Below, piece by piece: positions 14,478 through 64,000 of a stretch of 64,000 nucleotides of DNA. Source of the DNA: a virus; IMG/VR virus record IMGVR_UViG_3300029112_000175, positions 1,552-65,551 of that record. The stretch is one strand, 5' to 3'. The notes beneath the pieces were generated by a model. The model was given only the letters and a program-made list of their open reading frames with translations, ran no database searches and had not been told where the DNA came from. The translations under genes were made by a program, and so were the position numbers. Each line of letters begins with the position of its first letter. Positions within the stretch are counted from its first letter, which is position 1.

Positions 14478-15086
14478 CTACAACCATCTTACTACCGGTT
14501 CAGATGTACTTCCTTTCTCCCAAACAAACCAAGCATGACACATAGTTGTCGCCCAACGTTTTCCTGTCTTTGGGTCTTTCTCTAATCCACTATTCCAAGT
14601 CGCCATTCTGTTTCTGAAAACATAAATGTACTTCGGCGGATATTTGTCAAATAACTCCTTCCTCTTAGCACCTTCCAAGAACTGGATTTTGAGAAACATA
14701 GCCATTTGACCATCATCTTCCAGTAACTCCATACCCTTTTCTACAAATTCCTTTGCGAGCGAGTACGGTGGATTTGTGATAATTCCTTCATATTTTTTAT
14801 CAGTTTTATATGTAAGGAAATCAGCAACAATTGTTCCAGGATATCCTCGATCTACTAAGTCCATCCCTGTAATTTCTCTCTTGGTTGTATAAAAATCATT
14901 GATTGCATTAGCGATATGCCCACCACCAACACAAGGCTCCAAAATTGTATGTGCATCAAATGTATATTTAGTCAGCAACATTTTTACTGCTTCTGGATTA
15001 GTTGCATAGTAATCATCTTCAACCCTTCCATTTTCTGGATTGCCGCCTGCAAGCTTTGCACCCGCTAATACTTTCTTGTTGTTCAT
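14478..15086 (-). CDS. DNA N6-adenine methyltransferase (orphan, small)
   Basis: Motif I EPCVGGGH followed by motif IV IITNPPYS. Confidence 0.65.
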   Translation of the reverse strand: MNNKKVLAGAKLAGGNPENGRVEDDYYATNPEAVKMLLTKYTFDAHTILEPCVGGGHIANAINDFYTTKREITGMDLVDRGYPGTIVADFLTYKTDKKYEGIITNPPYSLAKEFVEKGMELLEDDGQMAMFLKIQFLEGAKRKELFDKYPPKYIYVFRNRMATWNSGLEKDPKTGKRWATTMCHAWFVWEKGSTSEPVVRWL

Positions 15087-15984: not shown

Positions 15985-16263
15985 TTATTCTGGAATTTTT
16001 GAACAGAAACGCTCATTGATAGATACGACTTCTAATTTGATATGATTTTTGATAAGGTTATCAACTGCTTTATCTAAATTACCATTGACCGCTTTTATTT
16101 CATTTATTACTTTATATATGGCATCTTTCGTATACACTGTCGCATCATCTACAAATTCTTTTGCATCCTTCTCTAAAATAACTTTCACAGGTTTATCGTC
16201 TGCCGTAGGAAGAATGTAAATCTTATGATTTTCAACATCTCTGACTGCTATAATTTCCGTCAT
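15985..16263 (-). CDS. hypothetical protein
   Basis: ORF in array. Confidence 0.4.
   Translation of the reverse strand: MTEIIAVRDVENHKIYILPTADDKPVKVILEKDAKEFVDDATVYTKDAIYKVINEIKAVNGNLDKAVDNLIKNHIKLEVVSINERFCSKIPE
15989..16022 (-). promoter_or_regulatory. Copy 1 of a ~33-nt conserved motif (GGAATTTTTGAACAGAAACGCTCATTGATAGAT), upstream of the methyltransferase gene
   Basis: About 29/33 identity with copy 2 at 47557-47590. It overlaps the C-terminal codons of ORF 15985..16263. Confidence 0.35.
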
Positions 16264-16765
16264 GTTCTAACACCTCTTTAGGGCAAAAAACAATTTCCTT
16301 ACCAGCCTTTTGAGCTTTGCGAATCGTAGACCAAACACCGCCAGATTTGTTTCCGTCCCAAATTGCTAATAATACATCACAATGATCAACCATGTATTGA
16401 TCTCTTACATTATCACAGCCTTTATAGAATTCATCTGATAATTCTACCCATTCATCTGCATACTTCTTCATGTCTTTATAAAATGGATGCGATGAATTAT
16501 AATTTTTACATGGCAGAACACAATGTAACACTAATGGAATAATTCTATTTACTTTTGCTAATGCGGCTACAGTTCCAAATACAAAATCGCTTCCAGAAGC
16601 CATACCACAATAAACTTCCAAATTTTTTCCATTTAAATAAGAAACTTCATTCATTTTAAAAAGCTGTTCTATAATCCATTCTTCAATTTTCTTCCAGGCG
16701 ATATCTGATTCATCTTCTGGCAGTCCTAATCTTTGTGGTCTATGACCTGTTAATGCTACTCTCAT
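16232..16765 (-). CDS. SLOG-superfamily YpsA/DUF1273-like Rossmann protein
   Basis: ALTGHRP resembles the YpsA AITGYKP motif. CGMASGSDFVFGT and DVLLAIWDGNKSGG are also similar to YpsA blocks. Confidence 0.5.
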   Translation of the reverse strand: MRVALTGHRPQRLGLPEDESDIAWKKIEEWIIEQLFKMNEVSYLNGKNLEVYCGMASGSDFVFGTVAALAKVNRIIPLVLHCVLPCKNYNSSHPFYKDMKKYADEWVELSDEFYKGCDNVRDQYMVDHCDVLLAIWDGNKSGGVWSTIRKAQKAGKEIVFCPKEVLEHDGNYSSQRC

Positions 16766-17732: not shown

Positions 17733-17951
17733 CTATGAAAAAACTTTTCTATTTTCATGAACACTAATCCCAATTGTAGAAACAGCTAATCCATAATATT
17801 TTGAAGCATCAGTCATCGAATCAAAACATTTACCGTCATTTAAACATTTAACTTTCTTTGAAAGAACCTCTTTTGTTCTTTCTATGGCTCTTTCCCAATT
17901 TTTTTCATTACCTAATCTAGTATATGGTAACATGTTATCCCTTCTCTTCAT
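17733..17951 (-). CDS. small protein translationally coupled to the radical-SAM gene
   Basis: Its ATG overlaps the radical-SAM TGA as ATGA, inside the repeated 14-mer TCATTCTGAAACGG. Confidence 0.45.
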   Translation of the reverse strand: MKRRDNMLPYTRLGNEKNWERAIERTKEVLSKKVKCLNDGKCFDSMTDASKYYGLAVSTIGISVHENRKVFS

Positions 17952-18859
17952 TCTGAAACGGCATCATATATCTTACCTACTTCATATTTGTAGTCCTCAA
18001 TCTTAGTTCTTCGGTAATAATCACAATAACAATGTCCATCAGTATCAATTACGTATTCAATACCTTTTGTAAGAATAGATGTATCCGATACTCCATGTAA
18101 GAAAAATACCCTCATGCCATCCTTTCTACGAAGCCTGCACCAATGAGAATCTGTTGTTTCTTCATAATTTATTGTATCAAATTGCCATCTTTCATTTTTA
18201 CTTTCAATAAGGTATTCATCAAATATCTTAAATTCTTTCCAAAAAACATCACATCTAAATCTAACAGAAATAAACCCGCATAATTTAGCCCAAGCAATAA
18301 ACATATCCCTCCATTGCCGAAAATTTTCAATTGGTCTAAATATAACCGCACACGCCGACACTGTAATTCCAATATTGTTTAAAGCTTTAATTATATATGT
18401 ATATTCTCCGATACCGATACAAAATCCTAATATTTCGTTTCTTCTATATGGACTCCAATCATGTACTGAAATATTTACATAATTTACAACATCTTTCATA
18501 TACGGGATAACTGCTTTAAGATTCGATCCATTGGATGTCAATGTCACTCTTAGAACTTTAGATTTAATATCATATTCTTTTAGTTTTATCAGCACATCCT
18601 TTAATAATTCAATATCTAATGTAGGCTCGCCACCAGTTATATCAAGAGAAACTGGATTTTTGTTACCAATCAGAGTAATGATATTGTCAAGCGAGGCCAT
18701 AAAGTTATATAAAAATTGTTCCTTGTCATATGATACTTGTTTATCTTTATTGTAACAAAACGGGCATTTGGCATTGCATCCGCTAGGTATCACTAATTTT
18801 ACAGTAATTACCTTATTGTAGTCTTTTCTTTCTATGTATTTCACATTAATCACCATCAT
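17948..18859 (-). CDS. Radical SAM enzyme of unknown function
   Basis: CNAKCPFC (CxxxCxxC) at residues ~28-35. GGEPT glycine-rich SAM motif. C-terminal Cys residues (HCYCDYY). Confidence 0.7.
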   Translation of the reverse strand: MMVINVKYIERKDYNKVITVKLVIPSGCNAKCPFCYNKDKQVSYDKEQFLYNFMASLDNIITLIGNKNPVSLDITGGEPTLDIELLKDVLIKLKEYDIKSKVLRVTLTSNGSNLKAVIPYMKDVVNYVNISVHDWSPYRRNEILGFCIGIGEYTYIIKALNNIGITVSACAVIFRPIENFRQWRDMFIAWAKLCGFISVRFRCDVFWKEFKIFDEYLIESKNERWQFDTINYEETTDSHWCRLRRKDGMRVFFLHGVSDTSILTKGIEYVIDTDGHCYCDYYRRTKIEDYKYEVGKIYDAVSE

Positions 18860-19697: not shown

Positions 19698-20246
19698 CTA
19701 CAAAATTTCATCTACAATTCCATATTTGAACGCATCGCATGAATGAATATAAAAATCTTTTTTCTTTTCACGAATATCATCGATATCCTCTTTGGTAAGT
19801 TTGGTTCTTTCGATTACATATTCTTCAATTTCTTTGTTCATTAAATCTTTTTCGGTTCTGTCTTCAACATGATCTTGATATTTTCCACTACTATAATAAT
19901 GCATTTGATGATACATAAATGTAGAATGTTTATAACAATATCTTTTATGCCCAGCAAGAAAAATCTTAAAAGCTGCACTCATTGCGTATCCAGTGCAATA
20001 TGTATAAACAGGAGTCTTACTATTCTGGATTACATCAATTAAACCCCACATATCATAAACAGCACCGCCATATGAATTGATATAGAGTTTAATCGGTTCT
20101 CTCTTATAATCCTTTTCTTTCTTATCTTTTTCATCATCTTCTGCAATTTGATATAAAATACTCCACGTAAGTTGTCCAATAGAAGAATTATCTACATCGT
20201 CTGATAAAAAATATAATCGCTTTTCAATGTTTGTGTATGTATTCAT
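19698..20246 (-). CDS. ClpP-family serine peptidase-like protein
   Basis: YINSYGGAVYDMWGLID...YCTGYAMSAAFKIFLAG gives the Ser site. MYHQMH gives the His site. Spacing is ClpP-like. Confidence 0.55.
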   Translation of the reverse strand: MNTYTNIEKRLYFLSDDVDNSSIGQLTWSILYQIAEDDEKDKKEKDYKREPIKLYINSYGGAVYDMWGLIDVIQNSKTPVYTYCTGYAMSAAFKIFLAGHKRYCYKHSTFMYHQMHYYSSGKYQDHVEDRTEKDLMNKEIEEYVIERTKLTKEDIDDIREKKKDFYIHSCDAFKYGIVDEIL

Positions 20247-36229: not shown

Positions 36230-37108
36230 TTACTCTTCACCAACAAAAACTAATCTATCAATATATTCTCTACCTTCGCCCTTGAAAATAGGGATATCTA
36301 TATCAATAATCCACTCATTTTCAGACTTAGAAGTATCTCTTAACTGCGCAGTTGTCATGACACTATCAGTTTCAATAACAATCTTATTTCTTACACAACA
36401 GCTTCCTCTCTTCTGATAAGTCGGTAAATCGTTCCAGTTAATACCTTTCTGAGTAATAAGCATATCCTGAATATCATTGCATGATTTATTCTGTAATTCT
36501 TTATGTGAGAAATTAGCTTGACCTACCATCTGAATTGAGTTATGAGAAGCGTCTAATTGCCTCCAATATACGAGATTTGTTACTTCTTCTTTTGGAATAT
36601 TGAAACAACGAGCATCGAACATTGCACCTTTGTCAACTGCTTTTGTGTAAATTTGACACATTTCATATTCTGGTGTACCTTTCCCATACCACCCATTGAT
36701 TTCATGTTCTGTTGCATAACACTGTTCAAAATCCTCTACATTCTTGGAAAAAGCTTTATTAAAAGCCATCGTAGCCATACTTGCCGCAATACTACAAATC
36801 TTCTGTACTTCATAATCAAACCATGCTGAAGATGTGAGCTTCTTATAATCAACAAGAATCAATGTAATCTCATCTGACTGCGTGTAACCAAGAACACAGC
36901 CCTGAATATTCTCGCATAAGTATTTCATTGTTTCCTGCATTGACTTAATTAACACTTCATCAAACGGCTTATGGAATCCTCTTGTGAATGTATGGAACGC
37001 CTTTCCATCAATTCTGATAGCAACTGGACACCTTCTCATTAATTTTGTCTTAGGAATCTGCTCATAAAATGTCTTCATGCGACAGCCTAAATCATCATGT
37101 ACTGGCAT
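36230..37108 (-). CDS. Thg1-like protein (tRNA-His guanylyltransferase family, 3'-5' nucleotidyltransferase)
   Basis: N-terminal block FYEQ...RCPVAIRIDGKAFHTFTRGFHKPFDEVLIKSMQETMKYL...GYTQSDEITLIL aligns closely with eukaryotic Thg1 (YVVVRLDGRNFHRFA..KPND..AYGQSDEYSF). SD AGAGAGGT precedes the ATG. Confidence 0.75.
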   Translation of the reverse strand: MPVHDDLGCRMKTFYEQIPKTKLMRRCPVAIRIDGKAFHTFTRGFHKPFDEVLIKSMQETMKYLCENIQGCVLGYTQSDEITLILVDYKKLTSSAWFDYEVQKICSIAASMATMAFNKAFSKNVEDFEQCYATEHEINGWYGKGTPEYEMCQIYTKAVDKGAMFDARCFNIPKEEVTNLVYWRQLDASHNSIQMVGQANFSHKELQNKSCNDIQDMLITQKGINWNDLPTYQKRGSCCVRNKIVIETDSVMTTAQLRDTSKSENEWIIDIDIPIFKGEGREYIDRLVFVGEE

Positions 37109-40446: not shown

Positions 40447-41433
40447 CTACTGCATATTTACGATTGGAGTAGCACTACCCTGAACCTGTGGGACTTCACC
40501 TTTCCACTTCTCGATTTTCTGCTTTTCAATCAGTTCAGGAGTAAGAGATGCTGCAATCTTAGCATTAGCAGTTGCTTCTGCCTCAGATTTAATTCTCATA
40601 GCTTCAGCTTCACCTTCTGCCTGAATCTTTTTCTGCTCTGCAACAATAGAAGCCTTTTCTTTTTCCTGTTCTGCTGCAATAAGAGCAACTTCCTTATCCT
40701 TATCAGCCTGAACCTTCGCAGTTTTTGCCTCAATATTAGCGAGTTCTAATTCCTGCTGTGCAGTTACTTTCTTCTGAATTGCAGCAGATGTTTCAGAATC
40801 TGTGGAAATATTGGTAAAGTTTACTGTGTCAATGATAATTCCATATGGCTCGAATTTCTGTTTTAAATATACATCAAGTGCTTCGTTCAGTTCCTGACGC
40901 TTATCACCGAATACATCAGTTACAGGATACTTAGCAGTTACTTCCTGCGTCCATGCTCTCATCTTTGGTTTAATAAATGTATCTTTAATAGACTTTCCAG
41001 GCTGTCCTTTAAACATAATAAATGTATCTGCAATCTTTGTCTGATCAAACTTATATGAAAATTCAAGATCAACTTTTAACGACTTACCATCAGATGTTGG
41101 AGTGGAAAAACTTTCGTCTGCTGGGGAATCCCCTTTTTCTTCTGATGTAAGATAAGACTGTTCAATACCAATAGAATATGTAGTTACTTTTTTTGTTGGA
41201 GCCACAAAATGCCATCCCTGTGTGATAACTTCTCCATCAACTCCTCCATTCATACTGTTGTATACGATTCCCACATATCCAGCTGGAATTTTCTCTGTAC
41301 ACTTAATTCCTACAAACAGACCACCAGCAATTAATACTGCTAAACCTACTCCACCAATTAAACCTTTACTCATTCTCTTTATTCTCCTCTTTCTTTTCTT
41401 TTTCGTTACCTTTAAGTGCTTTTTTAACATCAT
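40447..41433 (-). CDS. SPFH/Band-7 (stomatin/prohibitin/HflK-like) membrane protein
   Basis: Basic N-terminus then a TM helix (LIGGVGLAVLIAGGLFVGI). SPFH core (AGYVGIV...). Long Ala/Glu/Lys-rich coiled coil. Confidence 0.6.
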   Translation of the reverse strand: MMLKKHLKVTKKKRKRRIKRMSKGLIGGVGLAVLIAGGLFVGIKCTEKIPAGYVGIVYNSMNGGVDGEVITQGWHFVAPTKKVTTYSIGIEQSYLTSEEKGDSPADESFSTPTSDGKSLKVDLEFSYKFDQTKIADTFIMFKGQPGKSIKDTFIKPKMRAWTQEVTAKYPVTDVFGDKRQELNEALDVYLKQKFEPYGIIIDTVNFTNISTDSETSAAIQKKVTAQQELELANIEAKTAKVQADKDKEVALIAAEQEKEKASIVAEQKKIQAEGEAEAMRIKSEAEATANAKIAASLTPELIEKQKIEKWKGEVPQVQGSATPIVNMQ

Positions 41434-42017: not shown

Positions 42018-42788
42018 TTACAATACCTGTACGATCTGCTCATACAGGATCATATCCTTATCATTGATTGCTCTATTGACATGCATATGTCCCATGAACC
42101 AATACTTATATTCGGTTTCTGCTCTAATATTCTCCAAATACTTCGTAAGAATATCCTGTTCATACAAACCTTGTCCTAACAATGCAATAACTGATGCAGG
42201 CGGACTATGAGTGATAATATAATCTACTACATTATTATTCTCTTTTAATTTGTCCAATCCATATTGCATTTCCTGATCAGTTGGAAGTTCTTCTTCCCAC
42301 CAAGTCAGATCTTTTACACGGTACATCCATTTACCGTTTACTTCCAATTCCTTGGCTTGTTCTCGCCAATCCTCATCGTTATAATCAAGAATACCATCTG
42401 AAATATCGTGCGAACTTGCACCACCGAATGTAAAGAATTTTTTACCCTGAATATTGAAAACCTCACCACGCATCATATGTAGAACATGTGGTCTAATTTC
42501 ATGAATCATACCACCATGCCATTCTTTTACAGGATATGTAGCCATTCTTTTATGGTTCTCATGGTTCCCATCTACAAATAGTGTTGTGAATGGTTTATCT
42601 TCTAACCAGTCTAACCAATAATGCTCTGATTTTCTTTCACAATCACGCTGCCATACAAGACCAAAATCACCACAGATGATTACAAAATTTTCATCCTTGT
42701 TTCCGCTAAAATCTTTTTGTTCATAGAAACAATCTTTACTGAACCTGCTTACATCCGCATGGCAATCGCCTGTTACAAATACACTCAA
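42018..42788 (-). CDS. calcineurin-like metallophosphoesterase
   Basis: VFVTGDCHAD, IICGDFG, FVDGNHENH and a GGASSHD..THSPP motif series. Confidence 0.65.
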   Translation of the reverse strand: MSVFVTGDCHADVSRFSKDCFYEQKDFSGNKDENFVIICGDFGLVWQRDCERKSEHYWLDWLEDKPFTTLFVDGNHENHKRMATYPVKEWHGGMIHEIRPHVLHMMRGEVFNIQGKKFFTFGGASSHDISDGILDYNDEDWREQAKELEVNGKWMYRVKDLTWWEEELPTDQEMQYGLDKLKENNNVVDYIITHSPPASVIALLGQGLYEQDILTKYLENIRAETEYKYWFMGHMHVNRAINDKDMILYEQIVQVL

Positions 42789-45144: not shown

Positions 45145-45421
45145 TCTTTATATTCCTCCAATTCATACAATCCATTGATCTTATTATCCAACTCAGCCAC
45201 TTCTTGTCTTAATTTATTTGCTTTTTTCTTACTATCTGTTTTAATATATTCAGTCCATTTTTTCTTACGTAAGTTTGTCACTTCCTTGTACAACTCATCG
45301 CAGTCTTTTTCATCTACAACTGCCAGCTCAATCTTCTCTCCACAATTGCCAGCTTCTGAGCGATAGTGGATTTACCACTACCACTCAGCCCAACAAGTAA
45401 CATCAATTTAGGTTTATTCAT
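45141..45421 (-). pseudogene. P-loop nucleotide/polynucleotide-kinase-like gene remnant, frameshifted
   Basis: ATG at 45419-45421 gives MNKPKLMLLVGLSGSGKSTIAQKLAIVERRLSWQL, then TAG. The -1 frame continues ...EKIELAVVDEKDCDELYKEVTNLRKKKWTEYIK...EYKE and ends in a TGA overlapping the next ATG. No intact ORF of 60 aa or more. Confidence 0.45.
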
Positions 45422-46733
45422 TAACCGTCTCCTTATATAATTCTTCTGCTTCTTCCATATCAGGTGCATCAGATGTGTCCTTAATTAAACCCTCACATAC
45501 TTTAAATTCAAACACTTTGTCCTTAAAAGCAGTAAATGTAGGTCTATTATCAATACGAATAACTACACCCTCTGCAATATGTGTTTTGCCAATCTCATCT
45601 GCTGGCATTCCATCAATATATTTATGTACTCTTTCCTGGAGATCTTCTGGTGTTGTAAAAATAAACTTTTCTAAGTCAGGTACATGCTTAACTCCAAGCT
45701 TATCGCACCATACTTTAACAGTTTCCCAAGGAACTTCAAACACAGTTCCATCTGCTGTTGTTGCGGTCATTCGATATACATACATTTCATTTTCGCCAGG
45801 TTTACAACCATAAGAGAATGTTGTAGTATCTCCGAATTTCTTAGTGAATTCTTTTTCTTTTACACCTCTATTAGAAACAGACCCCATAATTGGAGTAGAT
45901 TCATTTACCCATCCTACAATCTCATAAAAAACCGATAATCCTTCTGGAAGTCTGTCTTTTAATAAATCATGATATTTTTTTCTAAAACTATTATCAGAAT
46001 AATATCCATCATTCTTAGTCATATCCTTTAGCACAACTCTTCTGCTACCAGATACCACAGAAACTTCTTTAAAGATTTTCGGCGGCATATGTAATAATTT
46101 TCTCAGCCGATTAGTTTTCTTTGTAACCTTGACTGTTTTCATTGTCCTGGCTGAAGTACCGTGGAGTTTGCGAGTAATATAAATAGTATCTCCTGGTTTA
46201 AAAGCAGACATATTGTATGCAAGCTGTGCAGTATCTTTATGCTCTTCAAAGAATGGATAAGATACAGTTTCTTTAGAATTTTTATGACTCTTTTTGGAAC
46301 TTCCAGTATTATTTCTTACTCGATTTTTACCTTTGGGAATATATTTACGACAAATCTCATGACCATCCAGAACAGTGATCTGATCACCATCTTTTAATTT
46401 AGAAATGTTAGTGTATTTAGAAAGTGTTTCAATTGGTAATACAAGACCTTCAGATTTTTCTCCTCGAAGTCTGATGGCTGTTACATTTCTTTTATCAGGG
46501 TCCATATAGCCACCAGTATTATTACCATTTTCATCTTTTACTCTTATCAAATTGTTCTCTGTTGCATATTCTAATGAAAGCTGTCCATCAGAAGGAAAGA
46601 AAATAACTTTCTGACCTTCTTTATAACTTAAATCTACAATTACATTCTGCCCAAATACTTCTACACACTGCAGCCTATCTGCATTACTGTGTTTTCTCAA
46701 ACCTTTTAACGTTGTTACATAAGCACAATACAT
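45414..46733 (-). CDS. ATP-dependent RNA ligase (Rnl2-like nucleotidyltransferase) with N-terminal Myf/EMAP-type tRNA-binding OB domain
   Basis: N-terminal YVTTLKGLRKHSNADRLQCVEVFGQNVIVD...IRLRGEKSEGLVLPIETL matches the tRNA_bind (HPNADKL...LRGVxSEGM) pattern. Ligase motifs: I ITRKLHGTSAR, III FYEIVGW, IV IAEGVVIRID, V FKDKVFEFK. Confidence 0.6.
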   Translation of the reverse strand: MYCAYVTTLKGLRKHSNADRLQCVEVFGQNVIVDLSYKEGQKVIFFPSDGQLSLEYATENNLIRVKDENGNNTGGYMDPDKRNVTAIRLRGEKSEGLVLPIETLSKYTNISKLKDGDQITVLDGHEICRKYIPKGKNRVRNNTGSSKKSHKNSKETVSYPFFEEHKDTAQLAYNMSAFKPGDTIYITRKLHGTSARTMKTVKVTKKTNRLRKLLHMPPKIFKEVSVVSGSRRVVLKDMTKNDGYYSDNSFRKKYHDLLKDRLPEGLSVFYEIVGWVNESTPIMGSVSNRGVKEKEFTKKFGDTTTFSYGCKPGENEMYVYRMTATTADGTVFEVPWETVKVWCDKLGVKHVPDLEKFIFTTPEDLQERVHKYIDGMPADEIGKTHIAEGVVIRIDNRPTFTAFKDKVFEFKVCEGLIKDTSDAPDMEEAEELYKETVNE

Positions 46734-48567: not shown

Positions 48568-50178
48568 CTATTCGATACACTTAAAAGATACATCTGTTCT
48601 ACGATTCATAGCCTTATGTTCATCTGTATCATTATCTACTATAGGTTTACTAGATCCATTACCTACAGTAATAATTCTATCAGCAGAAATTCCATTTAAT
48701 ACAAAATACTGTTTTACAGTTTCTGCTCTCTGCTGAGATAACATCTTATTGGCAGTATCTTCAGGATCAGAATATGGATTAGGGTCAGTATTACCAGCAA
48801 TCTCAATAATTGTTCCATCCAGAACTTTCGCAATACTGATAAAGTCATCTAATTTCTGAGTAGCTTCAGCGGAGTCAGTAAACTTTGCGGTATTAATAAT
48901 AAAGTTTACCGTTGCAGATTTCTGTAATAATGCAGTAGTATCAAGTACCTCCTGTTTATTCTCTTCTGTGACAGTTACATTTACATCAGTCTTTGTAATA
49001 TCCTGTGCATCGTACTTAGTTTCCAGTTTAGAAACATAAGTATTATCAAAAATAGTATTTAATAAATCCCTATTTACAGTTTCACCAATAGATTCCCAAA
49101 CTCCACACATATCAGAAAAAATTGTCTTTGCAGTTCCATTAAGTAAACTCATGTTATCAGCATATGTGCATAATTTTGCAGATTCACAATTTCCTAAAAT
49201 ATCCTCATCAGAGGCAGTAGAAAACATCGGCATGACAGACTTAATAGTAGTTAAATCAGTAGTGTATAAATCAGCCGCCTGAAAAGCGCCATCAATAAAT
49301 GCAGTTACAGTATCTGGATATTTCTTTGCAAAATCATCATTAAATAAAATTCCATCCATAATTAAACTGGAAGAACTTGCAGTGCTAAATAGGATATGTG
49401 CATCAGACATATTCTGTGCCTGAGTTAAATATGGTTCCCATGTTGCAGCTACATCAATCTGGCCTGCAAAGAAAGCTTTTGCTGCTTCATCTGGTGTTTC
49501 AAAATATACAAGATTATTAATAATAGAATCTTTTTCTTCCTGGGTTAAATCAGACTGGTTTACAAACCAAACCACTAAAGAATGAGCCTCTGAGAACTGT
49601 GGAACGCCAATTTTTGCATTTACTAAATCAGATACAGAATTAATAGAAGATTTTGTGATAATGCCATCTCCACCATTAGAGAAATTGCTGATGTATGGCA
49701 TAATTACATTTAGGCCTGCGTCCTGAAACTTTTTAGATAAGAAAGCGGTTCTGTTAATGGTATAGCCTGCTGCATCTAATTTCCCACTAATTAAAGCGTT
49801 GCTAGACTGGGTTGCATCATTGATGATGCTAATATTTACTTTTATTCCAAGTTTGTCATAGATGGAACCTGGTTGTGTGGTAAGCCCGTTGTTGGCGTCA
49901 ATAATTGGTTTCCAACCGATCCACTCATCAAGAGACACATTGATTGTTTTATCATCTACCTTATCAGTGTTAATTACGTTACCATCATCATCCGCTGCTA
50001 CAGGAGCTGCCATCTCTGGCTGTTTAGAGGTGTTTTCTGTCTTTGTAGTTTCTTTTTTACTGTGTTTAATAAATCCTGTTTTTAATCCTAAAACTACACC
50101 GCCACCAATTAATGCCATGATAAGAATCATGATCAATACTTTTGCTGCTTTAGTCAGCCGAAATCTTCTTGTACTCAT
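48568..50178 (-). CDS. Membrane-anchored NMT1/SsuA-like substrate-binding domain fused to C-terminal OmpA/MotB peptidoglycan-binding domain
   Basis: N-terminal TM helix (VLIMILIMALIGGGVVLGL). Central periplasmic-binding-protein-like region. C-terminal OmpA signature NTDPN...AMNRRTDVSF. Confidence 0.5.
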   Translation of the reverse strand: MSTRRFRLTKAAKVLIMILIMALIGGGVVLGLKTGFIKHSKKETTKTENTSKQPEMAAPVAADDDGNVINTDKVDDKTINVSLDEWIGWKPIIDANNGLTTQPGSIYDKLGIKVNISIINDATQSSNALISGKLDAAGYTINRTAFLSKKFQDAGLNVIMPYISNFSNGGDGIITKSSINSVSDLVNAKIGVPQFSEAHSLVVWFVNQSDLTQEEKDSIINNLVYFETPDEAAKAFFAGQIDVAATWEPYLTQAQNMSDAHILFSTASSSSLIMDGILFNDDFAKKYPDTVTAFIDGAFQAADLYTTDLTTIKSVMPMFSTASDEDILGNCESAKLCTYADNMSLLNGTAKTIFSDMCGVWESIGETVNRDLLNTIFDNTYVSKLETKYDAQDITKTDVNVTVTEENKQEVLDTTALLQKSATVNFIINTAKFTDSAEATQKLDDFISIAKVLDGTIIEIAGNTDPNPYSDPEDTANKMLSQQRAETVKQYFVLNGISADRIITVGNGSSKPIVDNDTDEHKAMNRRTDVSFKCIE

Positions 50179-50190
50179 ATATGTTCTCTC

Positions 50191-50928
50191 CTACTTATTA
50201 TATTTTTTCTTTAAAGAATCCAGATAATCATTACTACTATTTTTTCTCGCTTCAACTTCTGCTTTTGCTAATTTGGTAGACATTTTATTTTCATGAACTA
50301 CCCTAGAACCTTCTACAATAGCATTAAGATCTTTATTTTTTTCTCTTACAGAATCAAGCATTTTATCAGTAGCAGTGACATTTTTCAATTCGTCCATGTC
50401 ATCATAGACTTCCTGCAACTGTTTCTTTACTTTCATATTCTCTACAACTTCTTTACTCTCACGCTTCAATTTTCTGAGATTCTGTTCGCAGCGTTCTTGA
50501 GTTTCTTTCGCAGCAGCTGTTGCTTTTTCATACGCAGCCACAAGCTCCGTACAACGATTAATATCGGCAATAACTTCTTCTCTTTCTTCTGCTTTCAACT
50601 GTGCCAGATCCATCTTGCCCGCTTTTACTAAAGACTCACAATCAGTTTCCGTCTTCTTTAACTTATTTTTAAGAACTTCCATGTCCTTTTTAGCATTGCT
50701 TAGTTTACCAGCAGCAAGCTTATAAGCATTATCAGCTTTGTTGTAGGAATCTTGTGCCTGACTAATTTTCTCACCATAGATAGCTTCTGCTCCTTCTGGT
50801 GTAGTAGCCATATCTTTAATGAATAGTCTTGTCCATCCCATTAAAAGTGTTCTTGCTTCTGGGAACATAATTAGAATTACAACAAAAAGAAAAATAACCA
50901 CGCCAACAACAATAGTTTTCAGATCCAT
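50191..50928 (-). CDS. PspA/IM30-like coiled-coil membrane-stress protein
   Basis: N-terminal TM helix, then a PspA-like helical pattern (...EGAEAIYGEKISQAQDSYNKADNAYKLAAGKLSNAKKDMEVLKNKL...). Confidence 0.4.
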   Translation of the reverse strand: MDLKTIVVGVVIFLFVVILIMFPEARTLLMGWTRLFIKDMATTPEGAEAIYGEKISQAQDSYNKADNAYKLAAGKLSNAKKDMEVLKNKLKKTETDCESLVKAGKMDLAQLKAEEREEVIADINRCTELVAAYEKATAAAKETQERCEQNLRKLKRESKEVVENMKVKKQLQEVYDDMDELKNVTATDKMLDSVREKNKDLNAIVEGSRVVHENKMSTKLAKAEVEARKNSSNDYLDSLKKKYNK

Positions 50929-51464
50929 TAGACCTCACCTCCTACAAATGAAATCAACTTATTAATTCTATTTGCTTCAACAACAATAGTTTCAGTAGAA
51001 GCTTTTAACTCGGCCTGTTCCTGTGCAATATTTTTTTCTAATTCTGCAATTGTTTCTTTAGCTGCTTCAATTCTTTCCTGATAATCAGCAATCAAACTGT
51101 CTTTTTCAGAAGTAATTTTATTTAAAGCAGCGTTTAAAACTTCTACTCTTTTATTGCCATCTGCGACAACTTCTTCTGATGTAAGACCAAATACTCCAAG
51201 GGCAGATAACACACTGTTCTTTTTTGTTTCAGTAACCATTTCTTTTGGCAGAGCATTCATCAAATCTTCAATCTTAAAGATGGATTTAGACTGATCGTAT
51301 AATTCATTCTGTGCGTAAATATCAGATACAAGCGTTTCTGTATTTACCACATCAAGATTGATATTCGCGTCTTCTTCATAAATTGAGTCGCTTGTTTCTA
51401 ATCTCTGTTCCATTAGAGTGTCATCAACTTCTTCAACTAATCCAAGTTTTTTTAATAATCCCAT
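50928..51464 (-). CDS. coiled-coil hypothetical protein
   Basis: ORF abutting neighbours. Confidence 0.4.
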   Translation of the reverse strand: MGLLKKLGLVEEVDDTLMEQRLETSDSIYEEDANINLDVVNTETLVSDIYAQNELYDQSKSIFKIEDLMNALPKEMVTETKKNSVLSALGVFGLTSEEVVADGNKRVEVLNAALNKITSEKDSLIADYQERIEAAKETIAELEKNIAQEQAELKASTETIVVEANRINKLISFVGGEV

Positions 51465-51479
51465 ATTGTCTCTCCTCTT

Positions 51480-52091
51480 TTATAAATTTATAATCACATC
51501 ACACATTTTCTTTGCTTCTTCATTACTGTGTGTAACTATGATCACTGTATTATTCTCTACTTTATGTTGTTTTAACACGAGATTCTGCATTGTAGTTCTA
51601 GTTTGCGGATCAAGTGCAGATAACGGTTCATCCATTAATATAATTGCCGGTTTTGTAAATAATGTTCTGGCTAAAGCTAATCGTTGTCGCTGCCCTCCAG
51701 ATAATTGTTTCGGAAACTTTTTTTCGTAATTTTCAAGACCGACCTGTTTTAAAAAATCTTTTGCCAATTTAACATCTTCTTTTGTAACAGATCTTTTTAT
51801 TTTAACTGGCAATAAAATATTCTCTAAACAGTTCATCCAATCAAATGAAGTATAATTTTGGTGCATCATGAAAATATTGTTCTTTGAAGCTTTGGTTATT
51901 TTTTCTCCATCTACAATTATTTCACCATTTAATGGCTTCATTAATCCGGCAATTGTTCTAAGCAACGTTGTTTTTCCACAGCCAGATTCTCCTAAAATTC
52001 CATAAATTTTTTTATCGAATTTCATTGAATAATTTTTTAGTAATGGCTTATCTCTACTATAGCCAGTGGTTAGATCTTTTAATTTAATCAT
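51480..52091 (-). CDS. ABC transporter ATP-binding protein (NitT/TauT-type)
   Basis: Walker A GESGCGKTT. Signature LSGGQRQRLALAR. Walker B IILMDEPLSALD. Confidence 0.75.
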   Translation of the reverse strand: MIKLKDLTTGYSRDKPLLKNYSMKFDKKIYGILGESGCGKTTLLRTIAGLMKPLNGEIIVDGEKITKASKNNIFMMHQNYTSFDWMNCLENILLPVKIKRSVTKEDVKLAKDFLKQVGLENYEKKFPKQLSGGQRQRLALARTLFTKPAIILMDEPLSALDPQTRTTMQNLVLKQHKVENNTVIIVTHSNEEAKKMCDVIINL

Positions 52092-52830
52092 CTAAATACC
52101 TCCATTTAAATGCCCATTTAATTATTCTCTTACTAGCCCAATCAAATATGACGCTGATAATCATAATTACCATAATTGCCATAAAAACCATATCCGTTCT
52201 TCCTCTTGAGGAGCTTTGCTGAATAATCCATCCCAATCCGTAATGTGCATTAATTGTTTCTGCCACGGCAATGTATGTAAAACCGATACCGTACATCATT
52301 ACGAAGCTATTTAATATACTTGGCAGTGAAGCAGGAAGCTGAATTTTATATACAGTTTGTAGTTTATTCATTCCTATAGTCAAACCCGTATCAATCAAAT
52401 CCTGATTCACTTCTTCCAAACAGAGAATTACAGATGGCATCATATATACGAATGTTGCGATAAATAAGAACACAATCTTCATAAGTTCATCAATCCCAAA
52501 CCACATAATAAGTAAAGGATAAAATGCTGTAACTGGGATATATCTTAATGCACTGATAATTGGATTTAAAAAATCTTTTATTAATGGAATATTGAAAATT
52601 AATAGAGCTATTGGTAAAGAAATTATTGATGAAAGAATTGCTGCTATAGTCACTCTAAAAAAAGAATATTTAATCGCAATAAATATTTCTCCATTACATA
52701 TCAATACATATAAATTCCTAAATACGCTTTTAGGACTTGGTACAAAAATAGGATTATAATATCGTGCAGTAGTTGACCAGATCAAAAAAATACACAGAAT
52801 CAATAAAAATCTTTTTAATATATTTTTCAT
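52084..52830 (-). CDS. ABC transporter permease (TauC/SsuC-like)
   Basis: Six predicted TM segments. EAA-like loop IAVAETINAHYGLGW. Confidence 0.55.
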   Translation of the reverse strand: MKNILKRFLLILCIFLIWSTTARYYNPIFVPSPKSVFRNLYVLICNGEIFIAIKYSFFRVTIAAILSSIISLPIALLIFNIPLIKDFLNPIISALRYIPVTAFYPLLIMWFGIDELMKIVFLFIATFVYMMPSVILCLEEVNQDLIDTGLTIGMNKLQTVYKIQLPASLPSILNSFVMMYGIGFTYIAVAETINAHYGLGWIIQQSSSRGRTDMVFMAIMVIMIISVIFDWASKRIIKWAFKWRYLDD

Positions 52831-53610: not shown

Positions 53611-54825
53611 TCACCTCAATTCAATCAGATACTTAATAGTACATTGCTCTTCTTTGTAAACAATAATCTCATCATTACGCAGCATATCTCCCGCATGAGC
53701 GTGTAAACAATTCGCACCAGGACAAACGGATTGAAGTTTACTGTAATCAAAGCTGTAATATTTACTATCGAAGGAATACACATCATATGGTTTACCATAA
53801 GCTACATCCATTAATGCCATAAAACCAAAATTGGAATCACCTCTAACCCAATAGCTTCCACTCAAACTGGTATAACCAAGAGATTTTCTAGCTTTTGGTG
53901 CATAATAAATACCATACCCAAACATCTTACCCGTGATGACAGCATTAGTTGGTTTTAAGACAAGACCACTATTGATGATGAACCACCAATTTTCATTCCT
54001 GCTACCATGGAACAATAACTTTGTCTCCGTAATATTATTCTCTTTTACAAAATCATCAAAACGTTTCTGCGTCTTAAGGTTTTTGACTTTCCATGCCTTA
54101 TGGAATTTATCAGAGCATGATCCAAGTGCATCTTTAATAATAGCGATATCCTTTTTATCACATTCTTCGAATACCAGTCCCAACTGCTCAAGAATTGTAT
54201 TCTTGATTTTTACATCATTTTCCGCTTTTGTTTCTTCAATGACCTGTTTCTGTACGACCTGTCCTTTCATAACATCGAGCAGATCCTGTTCTTTTTGAAT
54301 AATCTCAGAGAAATTATTGCTAGACTTAGCAAGATAATCTGAAACGTATCCCATTTTTCTAGGAATAACAGTAAAGAGTTTTAACAGAATATTATTAAAT
54401 TCTTCAACTTCTTTAATATCAAGTAAACTTGTCAAAACATCTTGTGCTTCATCCACCATTGCCTGAGTTACTTTGTTAGAAGAAATCGTATAATTGTCGC
54501 TGATAGCTTTTCGTGCCATTGCTTGTAATCGTTCTACAATCTCAGCAATAACTTTATTTTCAATTTCTTTATATTCTGAGTTTTTAGGTTTTTCAACCTG
54601 AATTAAGTCTTCTACAAGTTCACTCTGATCAACATAGCCTTTGCGAAGTTTTTCTTTATATTTTGATTCCCACTGACTCATAGAATACTCTCTATGTTGT
54701 GGACTGCTTCCTACCCTTCCGTATTCAGCAGTCCAACTATCTCCATGAGGAATCTGTTTATAATATTTATTATTATTCGCAGAAGCAGTGACCATCACTA
54801 AATATCTTGGTTTGATCTCTGCCAT
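53611..54825 (-). CDS. PARP-like ADP-ribosyltransferase (WGR domain + helical domain + H-Y-E catalytic domain)
   Basis: N-terminal WGR-like HGDSWTAEYGRVGSS. C-terminal LLFHGSRNENWWFIINSGL...TGKMFGYGIYYAPKARKS...DEIIVYKEE aligns with PARP1 LLWHGSR...TGYMFGKGIYFAD...NEYIVY. His, Tyr and the catalytic Glu are all present. Confidence 0.75.
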   Translation of the reverse strand: MAEIKPRYLVMVTASANNNKYYKQIPHGDSWTAEYGRVGSSPQHREYSMSQWESKYKEKLRKGYVDQSELVEDLIQVEKPKNSEYKEIENKVIAEIVERLQAMARKAISDNYTISSNKVTQAMVDEAQDVLTSLLDIKEVEEFNNILLKLFTVIPRKMGYVSDYLAKSSNNFSEIIQKEQDLLDVMKGQVVQKQVIEETKAENDVKIKNTILEQLGLVFEECDKKDIAIIKDALGSCSDKFHKAWKVKNLKTQKRFDDFVKENNITETKLLFHGSRNENWWFIINSGLVLKPTNAVITGKMFGYGIYYAPKARKSLGYTSLSGSYWVRGDSNFGFMALMDVAYGKPYDVYSFDSKYYSFDYSKLQSVCPGANCLHAHAGDMLRNDEIIVYKEEQCTIKYLIELR

Positions 54826-54834
54826 ATATTCTCC

Positions 54835-55272
54835 TTATAATGTACAAACTAAAATCTCAATATCAGTATCAAAAAATACATCCTCTAACATTTCATATAC
54901 TCGATCCCATTCAAGCTGATCGAGGCCACACCCAATACGTGGCATTGCGATTTTAGTGATGTCATATTCTTCACAATAATCACGCATATCCACTAAAGTA
55001 TCATATAATGTTTCATATATAGGTTTGTGATAGCAACGAGGCTTTGTAACCAGATTAAATACGTTGTCAATGAGTAATGCTTTTCCTACATTATCGTATT
55101 TTTCTCCTTCTGGAATTGGATACTGACTATGTAATTTATATCTCATGTTATATACATCTACAAACTGCTTTGCAATACCAGCACCTAACGCATAATCACC
55201 ACTGATACAATGGGCCAAATAATAACCCTGTGGTACTGTAAATAAATCTCTCTGTTCTTCTTTAATATTCAT
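54835..55272 (-). CDS. macro-domain-like protein (ADP-ribose binding/hydrolase)
   Basis: LAHCISGDYALGAGIAKQF and IAMPRIGCGLDQLEW resemble macro-domain Gly-rich loops. Immediately upstream of, and co-directional with, the PARP gene. Confidence 0.5.
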   Translation of the reverse strand: MNIKEEQRDLFTVPQGYYLAHCISGDYALGAGIAKQFVDVYNMRYKLHSQYPIPEGEKYDNVGKALLIDNVFNLVTKPRCYHKPIYETLYDTLVDMRDYCEEYDITKIAMPRIGCGLDQLEWDRVYEMLEDVFFDTDIEILVCTL

Positions 55273-55635: not shown

Positions 55636-56361
55636 TTACTCTAAATTCTCTCTTGAAAATAACTGACATGCGATTCCGCAATCTTCCATTACTTCAAGAT
55701 CCATACGTCCACGTTTAGGATCAAGTTCATCCAGGAATACACCTTTGATACAGCTATGACCAATTTCTCTTTCCTCCTTGGCTCTGCGTTCAAAAACTTC
55801 GGGGAAATCTACTCGAATTTTATTCCAGTAGCCCATGCCACCTTTTACGCATCCAACGCAATTGTTGTTAGGATAACCTAACTCATACATCATTGGTCTC
55901 TTTAATCCAAGTTTCTTCGCCAATGCATGACAATCTTCTTTCGTAAATTTATTCTCGATTAATGGAAATTCATGATCATAATCTGTCATGGTATTTACTA
56001 AACGATCAGCTCTACGCTGCTCATTCATATCATATCCCCATACATAAATATGGTGATCTGGATGTTCTTTCTCCCATTGTTTTCGCACTTCTTTCTTTAA
56101 AAACTTAGTACAAGGCGCACCATATGGTGTATTAATACAACGAGTCTTCATAATCACATCATCAACATCTTTAAATCTGGTAGATTGCAATATTGTGATC
56201 TTTCTACCAAGAAGTTTCTCGCAATCATGCAGAAATCTCAGACTATCAGGATGCTGATTAGGAACGTGAGTATAAATAATCTCATCTACGTCCTTTGCTA
56301 AATAACATGCTACAAAACTACTAATTCCTGTACTAAACCAACAAACTTTCACACCAGCCAC
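55636..56361 (-). CDS. PAPS-reductase-family (PP-loop ATP pyrophosphatase, CysH-like) protein
   Basis: N-terminal VKVCWFSTGISSFVACYL (PP-loop-like). C-terminal Cys pair NNCVGCVKGG. Confidence 0.5.
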   Translation of the reverse strand: MAGVKVCWFSTGISSFVACYLAKDVDEIIYTHVPNQHPDSLRFLHDCEKLLGRKITILQSTRFKDVDDVIMKTRCINTPYGAPCTKFLKKEVRKQWEKEHPDHHIYVWGYDMNEQRRADRLVNTMTDYDHEFPLIENKFTKEDCHALAKKLGLKRPMMYELGYPNNNCVGCVKGGMGYWNKIRVDFPEVFERRAKEEREIGHSCIKGVFLDELDPKRGRMDLEVMEDCGIACQLFSRENLE

Positions 56362-58436: not shown

Positions 58437-59399
58437 TCAGGATTCTCTGGTAAAGAAGTATTTTTTCTTATCATAAGCTAATCTTTTATCCAACTCATCC
58501 ACCAACTCATAAAATTCAGGAATCGGCTGATCGTTACCGTCCAGATATTTACCATTGCGAATATCCATCAATAAGTCATGTTCTTTTCCTCTGTATGTAA
58601 CAATTTTTTCATTCTCTAAAATGTCAAAACACATATAATAAAGACGAACTAAATGCATCATGTGTTTTCCTAGTTTTCCATGTTCGATAGCATTCTGATT
58701 ACGCTTCCCAATCTTCGCATAATCTTTTACTACACAGTTCATTTCAGACCACATTGCTTTATAATCTCTCAATGGATAATGTTTAAAATTCATATCCATG
58801 AAAATTTCTGTATTATAATCTTCTTTATCTGACTTATCAATATAGAGCTTAAGTGAATCTTCTGGATAATAAGCATATTTGCTAGGAAATGTATATACGG
58901 CATTCATAATACTATTGAGAATATGTTGTTCTCTTTCTTCTTGCCCTACTACTCTTGCCGCCTTATTACTTAAACGCCGAAGCTGCTGGTTCGCATAACC
59001 ACCAAAAGAATACACAGCTTTCCTGGATAAAAATAAATGGGCATTATCTAATAATTCCTGACCAATCGGTGTTACGTATAAATAATGCTCAGGCTTTAAT
59101 CCTAACAACTCAATAGTATTAGGATTTACATTCAGTAATAACGAAACTAACTTATTGAACGAATATATTGTTGTATCAGTCTGTTCATTTACGAACTGTT
59201 CAAAATTCTGATTAGTCAAAATATCCATCTTGCTATTTAAGGCACAGCCGCGGCAATCCAAGTCCGAATTCTCTACATTAGTGCCATAGGCATAACTACC
59301 ACCCAAACCAAGAAGAATAATATTCTTTCCAAGATGCTCATTGGTTCTTAGAAAATCATATTCTCCACTACTGACTTTTTTCTTAATCTCATCAATCAT
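58437..59399 (-). CDS. Pol-beta-superfamily nucleotidyltransferase
   Basis: LLGLGGSYAYGTNVENSDLDCRG matches the GS-x(9-13)-DxD minimal NTase motif. A helical C-terminal domain follows. Confidence 0.5.
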   Translation of the reverse strand: MIDEIKKKVSSGEYDFLRTNEHLGKNIILLGLGGSYAYGTNVENSDLDCRGCALNSKMDILTNQNFEQFVNEQTDTTIYSFNKLVSLLLNVNPNTIELLGLKPEHYLYVTPIGQELLDNAHLFLSRKAVYSFGGYANQQLRRLSNKAARVVGQEEREQHILNSIMNAVYTFPSKYAYYPEDSLKLYIDKSDKEDYNTEIFMDMNFKHYPLRDYKAMWSEMNCVVKDYAKIGKRNQNAIEHGKLGKHMMHLVRLYYMCFDILENEKIVTYRGKEHDLLMDIRNGKYLDGNDQPIPEFYELVDELDKRLAYDKKKYFFTRES

Positions 59400-62544: not shown

Positions 62545-63012
62545 TTAATCGGCTTCTGTTTTCATATTCTTTTCATACCATGCATCTAAAGTAACCAATA
62601 GCATTTCACCTTTTTCGGTAAGCCAACAACCTGTGATACTACTACCATGCTCTATGAATTCATGTTCATCTAAAATATACATCATGAACTGAAGCAATCC
62701 AAATTGATTGTTGTCATTGTAATCAACATGTAAATCTCTTTTATACCTATTAAGAACTTCGGTATATTCAAGTTTATTTTCTCTCCAATCCTGACGAATA
62801 TATAAAAATTTTCTGATTACTTCATATGTATATTCAGGGCGTCCACAACCACATAAGTCTAAATCTTCATACATCCAATAGCTCATAAGTGGTTCGATTA
62901 ATGATTCCTCATACCAATCTTCTCTACAGCCATTAACAACAGTATAATTTGGCACCATACAACAGTCTGGATTATTTTTTACTATCCATTCTGCAATTTC
63001 ACTTAATCTCAT
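62545..63012 (-). CDS. hypothetical protein
   Basis: ORF in array. Confidence 0.4.
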   Translation of the reverse strand: MRLSEIAEWIVKNNPDCCMVPNYTVVNGCREDWYEESLIEPLMSYWMYEDLDLCGCGRPEYTYEVIRKFLYIRQDWRENKLEYTEVLNRYKRDLHVDYNDNNQFGLLQFMMYILDEHEFIEHGSSITGCWLTEKGEMLLVTLDAWYEKNMKTEAD

Positions 63013-63016
63013 GTTT

Positions 63017-64000
63017 TTACCTCAATCTAATATCTTCTCTTGTTTCTCCATCAGAATAATATATATTCCAACCTTTAAATAGGCTAATCAATTCTTCGTC
63101 GTCCCAGTCACATTCATTGCAATGCATAAGTGCTAATGATTTCTTATTTCCAAAATCTCCTACATCCTTACTGCATCTGTTATACAATTCTTTTAAATCT
63201 AATGTTCCATATCTCAATGTATCCTGGAATGGATTTGGTATATTAGTTTTATCAAAAATATATTTGTTGATCTGATTTTTATCACACTCTGATGGAAATT
63301 TTCCTGTACCATGCCGTGTAAGATATGTACGAGACACATAACAAGTTTCAATGTTTATCTCTTCATTCCATTCACCATTTTCAATTATTCTCTTGGGATT
63401 TTTAATACCTGTATTAGATGGTGTTAGATGTGGAAAATATTCTGTGTTATTCTGATCAAGCAATAAACCTTGTGCAGCTTCAAATACAATATTATCAAAC
63501 TGATTTAAGAAATAATTATCTGATATAGCCAATGAGTGATTATTCATAAAATCCCAATCATCTAAAAAGTGTTCAAATATACCATTATCAAGGAATATTC
63601 TTGACCATTCATCTGTTAATATAATATTCTCTCTTTCAAATTGTTCTAAGTAATATTCCCTGATATGATCATCTACATCAGTTATACCAGCTTTATATCT
63701 TTTGATAGTTTCAAAAATTCCCAAGCCACAACTACCATGTTTATTTTTTCCACGATTTTCCTCTATAATCTGATTTGCCATCATATCAAAAGGTGTAGTC
63801 AACATACAATCTTGATTGATATAAACATTTGGGATATATCCTAATTTCATCAACTCATCATATTCCTGCTTAAAAATAATTGGATTAACAATAAAATCCT
63901 CAGATAAATATGTACTTGCATGAGTGAATGTTCCAGATCCAAAATGATGAAAGACATGTCTGATTCCATCAGGCGTTGTTACGGTATGTCCTCTCTGAGC
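63017..64000 (-). CDS. Adenylosuccinate-synthetase (PurA)-family protein, divergent (partial; N-terminus beyond window end)
   Basis: The ORF stays open in frame to the window edge; the ORF track begins at a TTG. The upstream translation AQRGHTVTTPDGIRHVFHHFGSG matches PurA GGHNAGHTLV..LHLIPSG. ENRGKNKHGSCGLGIFETIKR matches GTTGRGIGPAYEDK. FEAAQGLLLDQNNTEYFPHLTPSNT matches [24 protein letters not shown]. Confidence 0.6.
   Translation of the reverse strand, partial: AQRGHTVTTPDGIRHVFHHFGSGTFTHASTYLSEDFIVNPIIFKQEYDELMKLGYIPNVYINQDCMLTTPFDMMANQIIEENRGKNKHGSCGLGIFETIKRYKAGITDVDDHIREYYLEQFERENIILTDEWSRIFLDNGIFEHFLDDWDFMNNHSLAISDNYFLNQFDNIVFEAAQGLLLDQNNTEYFPHLTPSNTGIKNPKRIIENGEWNEEINIETCYVSRTYLTRHGTGKFPSECDKNQINKYIFDKTNIPNPFQDTLRYGTLDLKELYNRCSKDVGDFGNKKSLALMHCNECDWDDEELISLFKGWNIYYSDGETREDIRLR

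Follow-up and report, generated by a model that had tools for sequence, protein, structure and literature searches.

The stretch of viral DNA considered here (hereafter the window: 64,000 nucleotides, positions 1,552 to 65,551 of IMG/VR record IMGVR_UViG_3300029112_000175) ends inside a minus-strand gene, at 63017-64000, whose product has the adenylosuccinate-synthetase (PurA) fold. Translation gives 327 open codons followed by a stop codon at 63017-63019, the N-terminal part lying past the end of the window. The 155-aa protein encoded just downstream, looked up by its exact sequence, led to L001, a Logan contig of 150,943 bp that is 100% identical to the window across a 1001-nt overlap; the same phage is present on many contigs. 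With L001 we obtained the full PurA-like gene and the flank past position 64000, in which the upstream genes are visible. The gene lies at L001:8899-9996, its start codon falls ∼114 nt past the window end (window-equivalent 64114), and its product is 365 aa long. The 38 N-terminal residues missing from the window include the P-loop, GANFGDCGKG; the full-length protein begins with MKDIKIVIGANFGDCGKGLMTDYF. Just upstream, also on the minus strand and outside the window, lies a gene for a 292-aa protein of the von Willebrand factor A (vWA) type with a metal-ion-dependent adhesion site (MIDAS), at L001:8003-8881 (window-equivalent 64132-65010). These two genes are the subject of what follows.

The PurA-like gene is a real, highly divergent relative of the adenylosuccinate synthetases. 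Its open reading frame (ORF) in the window matches Pfam PF00709 (Adenylsucc_synt) at 2.7e-22, over profile positions 36-284 of 416 only, and PHROG 1211 at 1.7e-50; the best match of the full-length protein to PurA chains in PDB is at 3.3e-16. A preliminary description of this DNA, made from the sequence alone, had called the ORF adenylosuccinate-synthetase-like on account of the blocks GHTV...HHFGSG and FEAAQGLLLD, and had seen strong divergence in the substrate loops. Both blocks are indeed in the translation of the minus strand, and GSCGLGIFETI does stand where PurA has GTTGRGIGPAY. The AlphaFold2 model has a predicted local distance difference test score of 95.1 and a predicted template-modelling (TM) score of 0.93; Foldseek places H. 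pylori PurA first (1.4e-20), with TM scores of 0.73-0.75 for B. anthracis PurA and 0.71-0.75 for the top bacterial PurA matches. All 43 fold matches in PDB at E≤0.001 are PurA, PurZ or PurZ0 chains.

As for the upstream partner, a Pfam search at E≤1 and a comparison of a 23-sequence profile with PDB gave nothing meaningful, and its vWA (integrin I-domain) fold is seen by structure prediction only; the predicted model superposes on the vWA domains of BchD and NorD. It carries a MIDAS motif of the DxSxS type, here D73-x-T75-x-S77, which is invariant. Also invariant are the loops QxxQFExDxRI and GGGN..ESY and, across the aligned family, the N-terminal Met1-Gly2.

The pairing of the two genes is very regular. 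The vWA gene was found directly upstream of the PurA-like gene, on the same strand, in 78 of 80 loci from IMG/VR (one of the two exceptions is a truncated locus) and in 76 of 80 loci from GTDB genomes. In the GTDB loci the two genes are separated by −37 to +174 nt, barring one start-call artefact (−132, L167); three of the four loci with no vWA gene end at a contig edge, and in the fourth, L170, the PurA-like ORF is truncated and nothing matched the vWA protein. Cultured carriers comprise ∼200 cluster C mycobacteriophages (I3 and relatives), Rhizobium phages RHph_TM30/TM40 and relatives, and 190-kb Vibrio phages; these and the phage of the window all encode a homologous protein of ∼300 aa just upstream (BLASTP 1e-40 to 1e-53). 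The numbers of phage-database records for the two proteins are equal: 202 for Mycobacterium, 10 for Rhizobium, six for Vibrio and one for Mycolicibacterium. Head-to-tail co-inheritance of the vWA and PurA-like genes extends over four phage lineages that are unrelated to one another and over chromosomes of Clostridia.

At 50% identity, the PurA-like family as a whole comprises 6877 representatives when matches at E≤1e-3 are counted, and 2366 when E<1e-30 is required. It is large, uncharacterised and mostly phage-borne, and it is neither canonical PurA nor PurZ. In full-text literature (with incomplete coverage, most subscription papers being outside it) no paper was found that deals with the pair or reports what the PurA-like genes of the mycobacteriophages, or those of the Rhizobium and Vibrio phages, do. 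At some loci (L018:4915-5988, also L024, L029, L032, L033 and L045) a gene for a 357-aa protein sits exactly between the vWA and PurA-like genes; this insert may be a selfish element of the homing-endonuclease type.

To what extent the active site of PurA is preserved could be seen in an alignment of 48 diverse family members, 20-27% identical to PurA (positions are those of E. coli PurA). Asp13, Lys16, Gly40-His41, Gln224 and Thr239 are conserved in all 48 sequences, Thr42 in 45, and Ser/Thr128 (serine in 47) and Arg272 in 46-47. With Asp13, Lys16, His41 and Gln224, PurA phosphorylates the 6-oxo group of a purine nucleotide; Thr239 and Ser/Thr128 we take to be ligands of the 5′-phosphate. Other positions have changed: Asn38 became Gln (47 of 48), Thr129 became Cys (42 of 48), and Pro135, Val273 and Thr301 were replaced throughout by Glu, His and Gln, respectively. 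Arg131 gave way to a hydrophobic residue (M/L/V/A/C) and Thr300 to Phe, Tyr or His; Arg303 falls in a gap, Arg304 is variable, Arg305 is replaced by Leu, Ile, Phe or Met, and Arg306 is the sole arginine kept of the GATTGRRRR motif. In the weakly aligned region of the guanine-specific (N/T)KxD motif, Lys331 is replaced by His in 44 of 48 sequences; at position 333, 28 sequences have Asn and 20 have Asp. Wang et al. (1995), as cited in PMC8342488, placed Arg131, Arg303 and Arg304 of E. coli PurA in its L-aspartate site. With the residues of the first step kept and those of the aspartate site changed, the chemistry of the first half-reaction looks intact, and the pocket for the third substrate has turned from strongly cationic to neutral or acidic.

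We read the protein as a PurA-type ligase that is active, is altered in its site for the third substrate and would work with the vWA partner, and we give this reading a probability of about 0.6, based on the residue pattern and the gene pairing. One could think instead of an ordinary, fast-evolving adenylosuccinate synthetase (IMP, inosine monophosphate, plus L-aspartate plus GTP) serving as an auxiliary metabolic gene for supply of AMP or dATP, with the host PurB finishing the synthesis and the vWA protein acting as an accessory or stabilizing subunit or providing an aspartate site at its MIDAS. The PurA fold, the retention of every first-step catalytic residue, the greater closeness of the family to bacterial PurA than to PurZ, and the presence of other nucleotide-supply genes in the window (NrdD/NrdG, dUTPase, guanylate-kinase-like protein, NT5C) all agree with such an enzyme, as does the use of aspartate by PurZ in spite of its own missing arginines, considered further below. 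However, the three best PurA equivalog models score the protein at 98.9, 88.7 and 81.5 bits, against cut-offs of 395-445 (the TIGR00184 / NF002223 test), and the matches end at about residue 286 (PurA position 290); with Arg131, Thr300/301 and Arg303-305 also replaced, and with Glu, His and Gln as newly invariant residues, identity with canonical PurA was rejected. Furthermore, the near-obligate pairing with a vWA gene has no counterpart in canonical purA. Purine salvage, one of two functions proposed in the preliminary description, is a possible role, but it leaves the loss of the aspartate-site residues and the obligate partner without explanation. An ordinary synthetase is, in our estimation, a possible but doubtful identity for this protein.

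The other function proposed there was that of a PurZ-type enzyme in a pathway for the Z base (2-aminoadenine), i.e. a PurZ or PurZ0 that would make the 2-aminoadenine precursor from dGMP in a phage with a Z-genome. The protein is, to be sure, a phage homolog of PurA that falls in the same remote-homology group, PHROG 1211, as phiVC8 PurZ, and the genome has a guanylate-kinase-like protein and a dUTPase, the family of the latter being reused as a dATP/dGTP hydrolase by some PurZ0 phages (PMC12884076). A serine in the P-loop at the position of PurA Asp13 is the hallmark of PurZ (PMC8342488; bioRxiv 10.1101/2025.10.22.683976). As controls we used phiVC8 and S-2L PurZ, taken from the GenBank records, and E. 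coli PurA. The hallmark serine is S14 in phiVC8 and S23 in S-2L (P-loop GSTGKG); the protein considered here has GDCGKG, and the position is Asp in 48 of 48 family members. The NCBIfam PurZ model NF038379 (cut-off 300) gave 40.8 bits for our protein vs 397.2 for phiVC8 PurZ, 349.8 for S-2L PurZ and 126.7 for E. coli PurA. Conversely, a profile built from the family gave 127 bits for E. coli PurA and 23-33 bits for PurZ. BLASTP aligned the first 50-90 residues with PurZ and no more; among the fold matches bacterial PurA came first, PurZ0 ranked 23 and PurZ 28 or lower. The central helical insert is kept in our protein and missing from both PurZ sequences in the alignment. The placement of the family rests on these model scores, hallmark residues and fold ranks.

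The companion genes of a Z-genome were also sought; they encode enzymes that remove dATP and supply dGMP (the HD hydrolase DatZ, MazZ/DUF550, or DutZ) and, as a rule, the Z-selective polymerase DpoZ. A Pfam scan of 50 window ORFs showed no HD/DatZ, MazG/MazZ or PolA/DpoZ gene, and tblastn with phiVC8 and S-2L DatZ, MazZ, DpoZ and PrimPol had no match in the 64-kb window, in the next 9 kb as read from L001, or in the GenBank relative MT835469 (176 kb), of which just 6.2 kb is alignable to the window DNA. The search in the phage itself covered 64 kb plus ∼9 kb, about half of the genome. The replicase is a DnaE-type Pol III alpha. A PurZ identity with a Z-genome, rejected on the hallmark residue, the model scores, the fold ranking and the lack of companion genes in the regions searched, thus appears highly improbable. 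We know of no report of Z-DNA for the cultured carriers (cluster C mycobacteriophages).

Clustering of the neighbours of 86 loci brought out further members of the cassette. Upstream of the vWA gene there is either a gene for a ∼200-aa Met/Gly-rich protein or one for a ∼340-aa DnaJ-pseudokinase. The former protein has a small beta-rich domain followed by a Met/Gly-rich tail, acidic in the gut-phage copies. In the phage of the window it is a 203-aa protein, ‘C4’, encoded on the minus strand upstream of the vWA gene and outside the window (L001:7390-8001, window-equivalent 65012-65623); similarly built proteins of the Vibrio and Rhizobium phages have no BLAST link to C4. The ∼340-aa protein (e.g. 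gp270 of mycobacteriophage I3) combines a DnaJ HPD domain with a kinase-like domain that has no catalytic Asp, as judged by reading the sequences. A regulator of the NrtR type, with a Nudix domain and an NrtR winged helix, was in the cluster at 61 of the 86 loci; on reading of the sequence its Nudix box is apparently intact. In Desulfosporosinus hippei the order NrtR / DnaJ-kinase-like / vWA / PurA-like was found among ordinary chromosomal genes, outside any prophage. That bacteria hold the cassette as a separate, NrtR-linked unit speaks against an ordinary synthetase, as a second ordinary purA would probably be redundant. NrtR proteins sense ADP-ribose (Rodionov 2008, as cited in PMC9503650), which suggests that the bacterial cassette is induced during breakdown of NAD+.

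At ∼10 bacterial loci, in Lachnospiraceae (L113:8244-10226, L115, L122, L123, L138, L155), a protein of ∼670 aa is encoded downstream of the PurA-like and NrtR genes, at a distance of one to a few kb; it has a C-terminal S-adenosylmethionine-dependent methyltransferase domain preceded by another, N-terminal domain, and it may be a further component of the cassette. On the downstream side in the phage itself, the 155-aa ORF (62545..63012, minus strand), separated from the PurA-like gene by 4 nt, matches solely PHROG families of unknown function, as is the case for all immediate neighbours of the PurA-like gene compared with PHROGs. This ORF is absent from the conserved neighbour clusters of the 86 loci and is outside the conserved cassette in other lineages.

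The accessory genes bring to mind a non-biosynthetic role, in which the PurA-like protein would be an NTP-driven switch or effector with a vWA adaptor, remodelling or modifying a protein target or depleting GTP or IMP in a conflict system. Two-component systems that join a P-loop NTPase to a vWA-MIDAS protein are recurrent, and the model of the partner fits the vWA domains of BchD and NorD; the pair is also found together with accessories of the chaperone type (the DnaJ HPD domain, the Met/Gly-rich protein) and a regulator that senses ADP-ribose. On the other hand, Gln224, Thr239, Ser128 and Arg272, which contact the monophosphate or base, are as strictly conserved as the NTP site, which points to a small-molecule purine nucleotide as substrate; besides, no PADLOC defence model matched the PurA-like protein, the vWA protein, C4 or the clostridial DnaJ-pseudokinase. 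We consider a switch of this kind quite unlikely.

A PurA-type ligase working with a vWA partner could operate as follows. The two-step chemistry of PurA would be retained, with an NTP phosphorylating O6 of an IMP-like nucleotide and an amine then displacing the phosphate. The amine site would be remodelled, so that either something other than free aspartate serves as nucleophile, or the MIDAS metal of the partner, instead of arginines, holds the nucleophile; the enzyme would act in complex with the vWA protein, and the upstream Met/Gly-rich protein or DnaJ-pseudokinase might assist as a chaperone-like third protein. In bacteria the NrtR-type Nudix regulator would induce the cassette when NAD+ is broken down; in phages the likely role would be reshaping of purine-nucleotide pools in infection. 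Should the nucleophile not be aspartate, the pair would carry out a reaction new to phage purine metabolism or a novel kind of nucleotide modification.

Several points weigh against this interpretation. PurZ, with no Arg131 and no proper Arg303, still uses aspartate (PMC8342488), so that loss of these residues is no proof of lost aspartate use. Alignment of the aspartate loop is uncertain by a few residues, though no register brings the arginines back. The substrate, nucleophile and NTP are deduced from residue conservation in an alignment at 20-27% identity, and the interaction of the enzyme with the vWA protein from synteny. The second IMG/VR exception, L031, has the PurA-like gene with no vWA gene upstream. 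Finally, neither the window nor L001 has an NrtR, PncA or DnaJ-kinase gene, and the NrtR link is absent from this phage within the sequence covered.

One could speculate further that aspartate is unused altogether: IMP or a related 6-oxopurine nucleotide would be activated and passed to ammonia or to the invariant, free N-terminal Gly of the partner, and the cassette, made up of a chaperone-like protein, the vWA protein and the PurA-like protein and in some cases also NrtR, would be a new ADP-ribose-responsive nucleotide-conflict module of phages and bacteria. Transfer to ammonia would amount to a one-step amination of IMP to AMP that bypasses PurB, and transfer to the N-terminal glycine to a covalent protein-N6-adenylate conjugate. 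We regard this extended scheme as unlikely.

The window has a G+C content of 33%, and all 92 ORFs judged real are on the minus strand. It is part of a phage of human-gut Clostridia with a genome of roughly 150 kb. Genes closely related to the PurA-like gene were found on IMG/VR contigs of 90-215 kb and in Lachnospiraceae and Ruminococcus assemblies; one relative is a prophage beside an integrase in a 2.78-Mb contig. The replication and nucleotide genes in the window comprise DnaE-type Pol III alpha, DnaB, a RecJ-like DHH protein, an NAD-dependent ligase, NrdD/NrdG, dUTPase (809-1354), the 5′-deoxynucleotidase NT5C (5991-6563), the guanylate-kinase-like protein (6560-7111) and an N6/N4 DNA methylase (15170-15910). 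This bears out most of the neighbour list in the preliminary description, which had named two DNA methyltransferases; the second putative methylase (14478-15086) has a weak match only.

Further genes of the window encode a PARP-like protein, a macro-like protein, an ABC transporter and an RNA-repair set. The ABC importer-like set (48568-52830, minus strand), unusual phage cargo, consists of an NMT1/THI5-type substrate-binding protein fused to an OmpA-like C-terminus (48568-50178), a PspA/IM30-like protein (50191-50928; a weak assignment), an ABC ATPase (51480-52091) and a BPD_transp_1 permease (52084-52830). Members of the RNA-repair set are scattered over the minus strand (36230-37108, 42018-42788, 45414-46733 and 58437-59399): a Thg1-like 3′-5′ nucleotidyltransferase, a calcineurin-like phosphoesterase, an RNA ligase with a PHA02142 OB domain and an RlaP nucleotidyltransferase; the set probably counters tRNA-cleaving defences of the host.

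At 53611-55272 (minus strand) a 404-aa protein has a PARP catalytic domain and a faint match to WGR, and the next protein, of 145 aa, has a match to PHROG 335 (‘phosphatase’) and looks by eye like a macro domain; such a pair would be a writer and an eraser of ADP-ribosylation beside a hypervariable region. Contigs L001-L006 are near-identical, yet their cargo differs downstream of the PARP-like gene (varying regions: L002, 11830-12357 and from 19762 onward; L003:18188-20468). One contig has an isochorismatase/PncA-like gene and a P-type cation ATPase; in another, three TerD genes replace the PARP-like gene. The PncA-like gene was found only in the variant contig L002. The region looks like a swap-in accessory region. 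For a 241-aa protein at 55636-56361 (minus strand) the match is to PHROG 424 (‘phosphoadenosine phosphosulfate reductase’), a family of PP-loop ATPases whose phage members often have links to DNA or base modification, not to sulfate assimilation. The minus strand also encodes a YpsA-type SLOG protein, a radical-SAM protein separate from NrdG, a ClpP-like protease and an SPFH/Band 7 protein (16232-16765, 17948-18859, 19698-20246 and 40447-41433).

The results bear on current annotation as well. The label of PHROG 1211, ‘2-aminooxy adenylosuccinate synthetase’, is the RefSeq name of phiVC8 PurZ and is also found on mycobacteriophage PurA-like genes; being shared by both, it does not discriminate between them and was rejected as evidence for PurZ. 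RefSeq and Pharokka-style records (e.g. NC_031080, NC_054720, NC_070966 and PP083315) apply the PurZ name to PurA-like genes with Asp at the hallmark position, and recent automatic annotation appears to propagate the label. This is likely a systematic mis-annotation that implies Z-DNA in phages not expected to have it. Hundreds of cultured phage genomes label the gene ‘PurA-like’, and PurZ-type naming of it invites a wrong conclusion about Z-DNA. The PurA catalytic core, the lost aspartate-site residues and the vWA/MIDAS partner set the family apart from both PurA and PurZ; the result is a testable two- or three-protein system, and the pair is carried by well-studied, genetically tractable cluster C mycobacteriophages that grow on M. 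smegmatis.

Among known systems, the closest in fold is canonical PurA of E. coli and H. pylori (EC 6.3.4.4; PDB 1ADE/1CG0 and 6ZXQ), with a TM score of about 0.7 at the Foldseek value given above. Shared with it are the P-loop GDxGKG with the catalytic Asp, the GHT His, Gln224, Thr239, the TR-x-G motifs and the central helical region, and identity to E. coli PurA is 26.6% over 290 aa. Canonical PurA is longer, ∼430 aa vs 365 aa; the segment between the TKLD and STGPDR motifs is deleted in the phage protein, in which Asn38, Val273, Pro135 and Lys331 correspond to Gln, His, Glu and His, and Arg131, Thr300/301 and Arg303-305 of the aspartate site are replaced. It differs also in the vWA gene that nearly always adjoins the PurA-like gene.

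PurZ and PurZ0 (succino-amino-deoxyadenylate synthases of phages with Z-genomes; PDB 6FM1, 7ODX and 7VF6) resemble the PurA-like protein in being shortened, phage-encoded PurA homologs of PHROG 1211 with Leu in place of Lys18 in the P-loop; they differ in the P-loop Ser, Asp here, and no vWA gene is listed in the PurZ neighbourhoods of phiVC8 and S-2L. Members of the same family are the ‘PurA-like’ proteins of Bixzunavirus (I3 gp273 and relatives), RHph_TM30/TM40 and Vibrio TDDLMA/pv27, which show 27-36% identity over >90% of the length and have the upstream vWA gene, although they are longer (370-442 aa); in the mycobacteriophages a DnaJ-kinase-like gene lies upstream, and a gene for a 112-aa protein separates the vWA gene (gp271 in I3/Bxz1-type phages) from the PurA-like gene. 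In its design the pair recalls BchI-BchD, NorQ-NorD, CbbQ-CbbO and RavA-ViaA, in which two genes encode a nucleotide-using enzyme and a MIDAS-bearing vWA adaptor. The NTPases of those systems are MoxR-type AAA+ rings rather than PurA-type enzymes; the likeness is an analogy of design and implies no homology of the enzymes.

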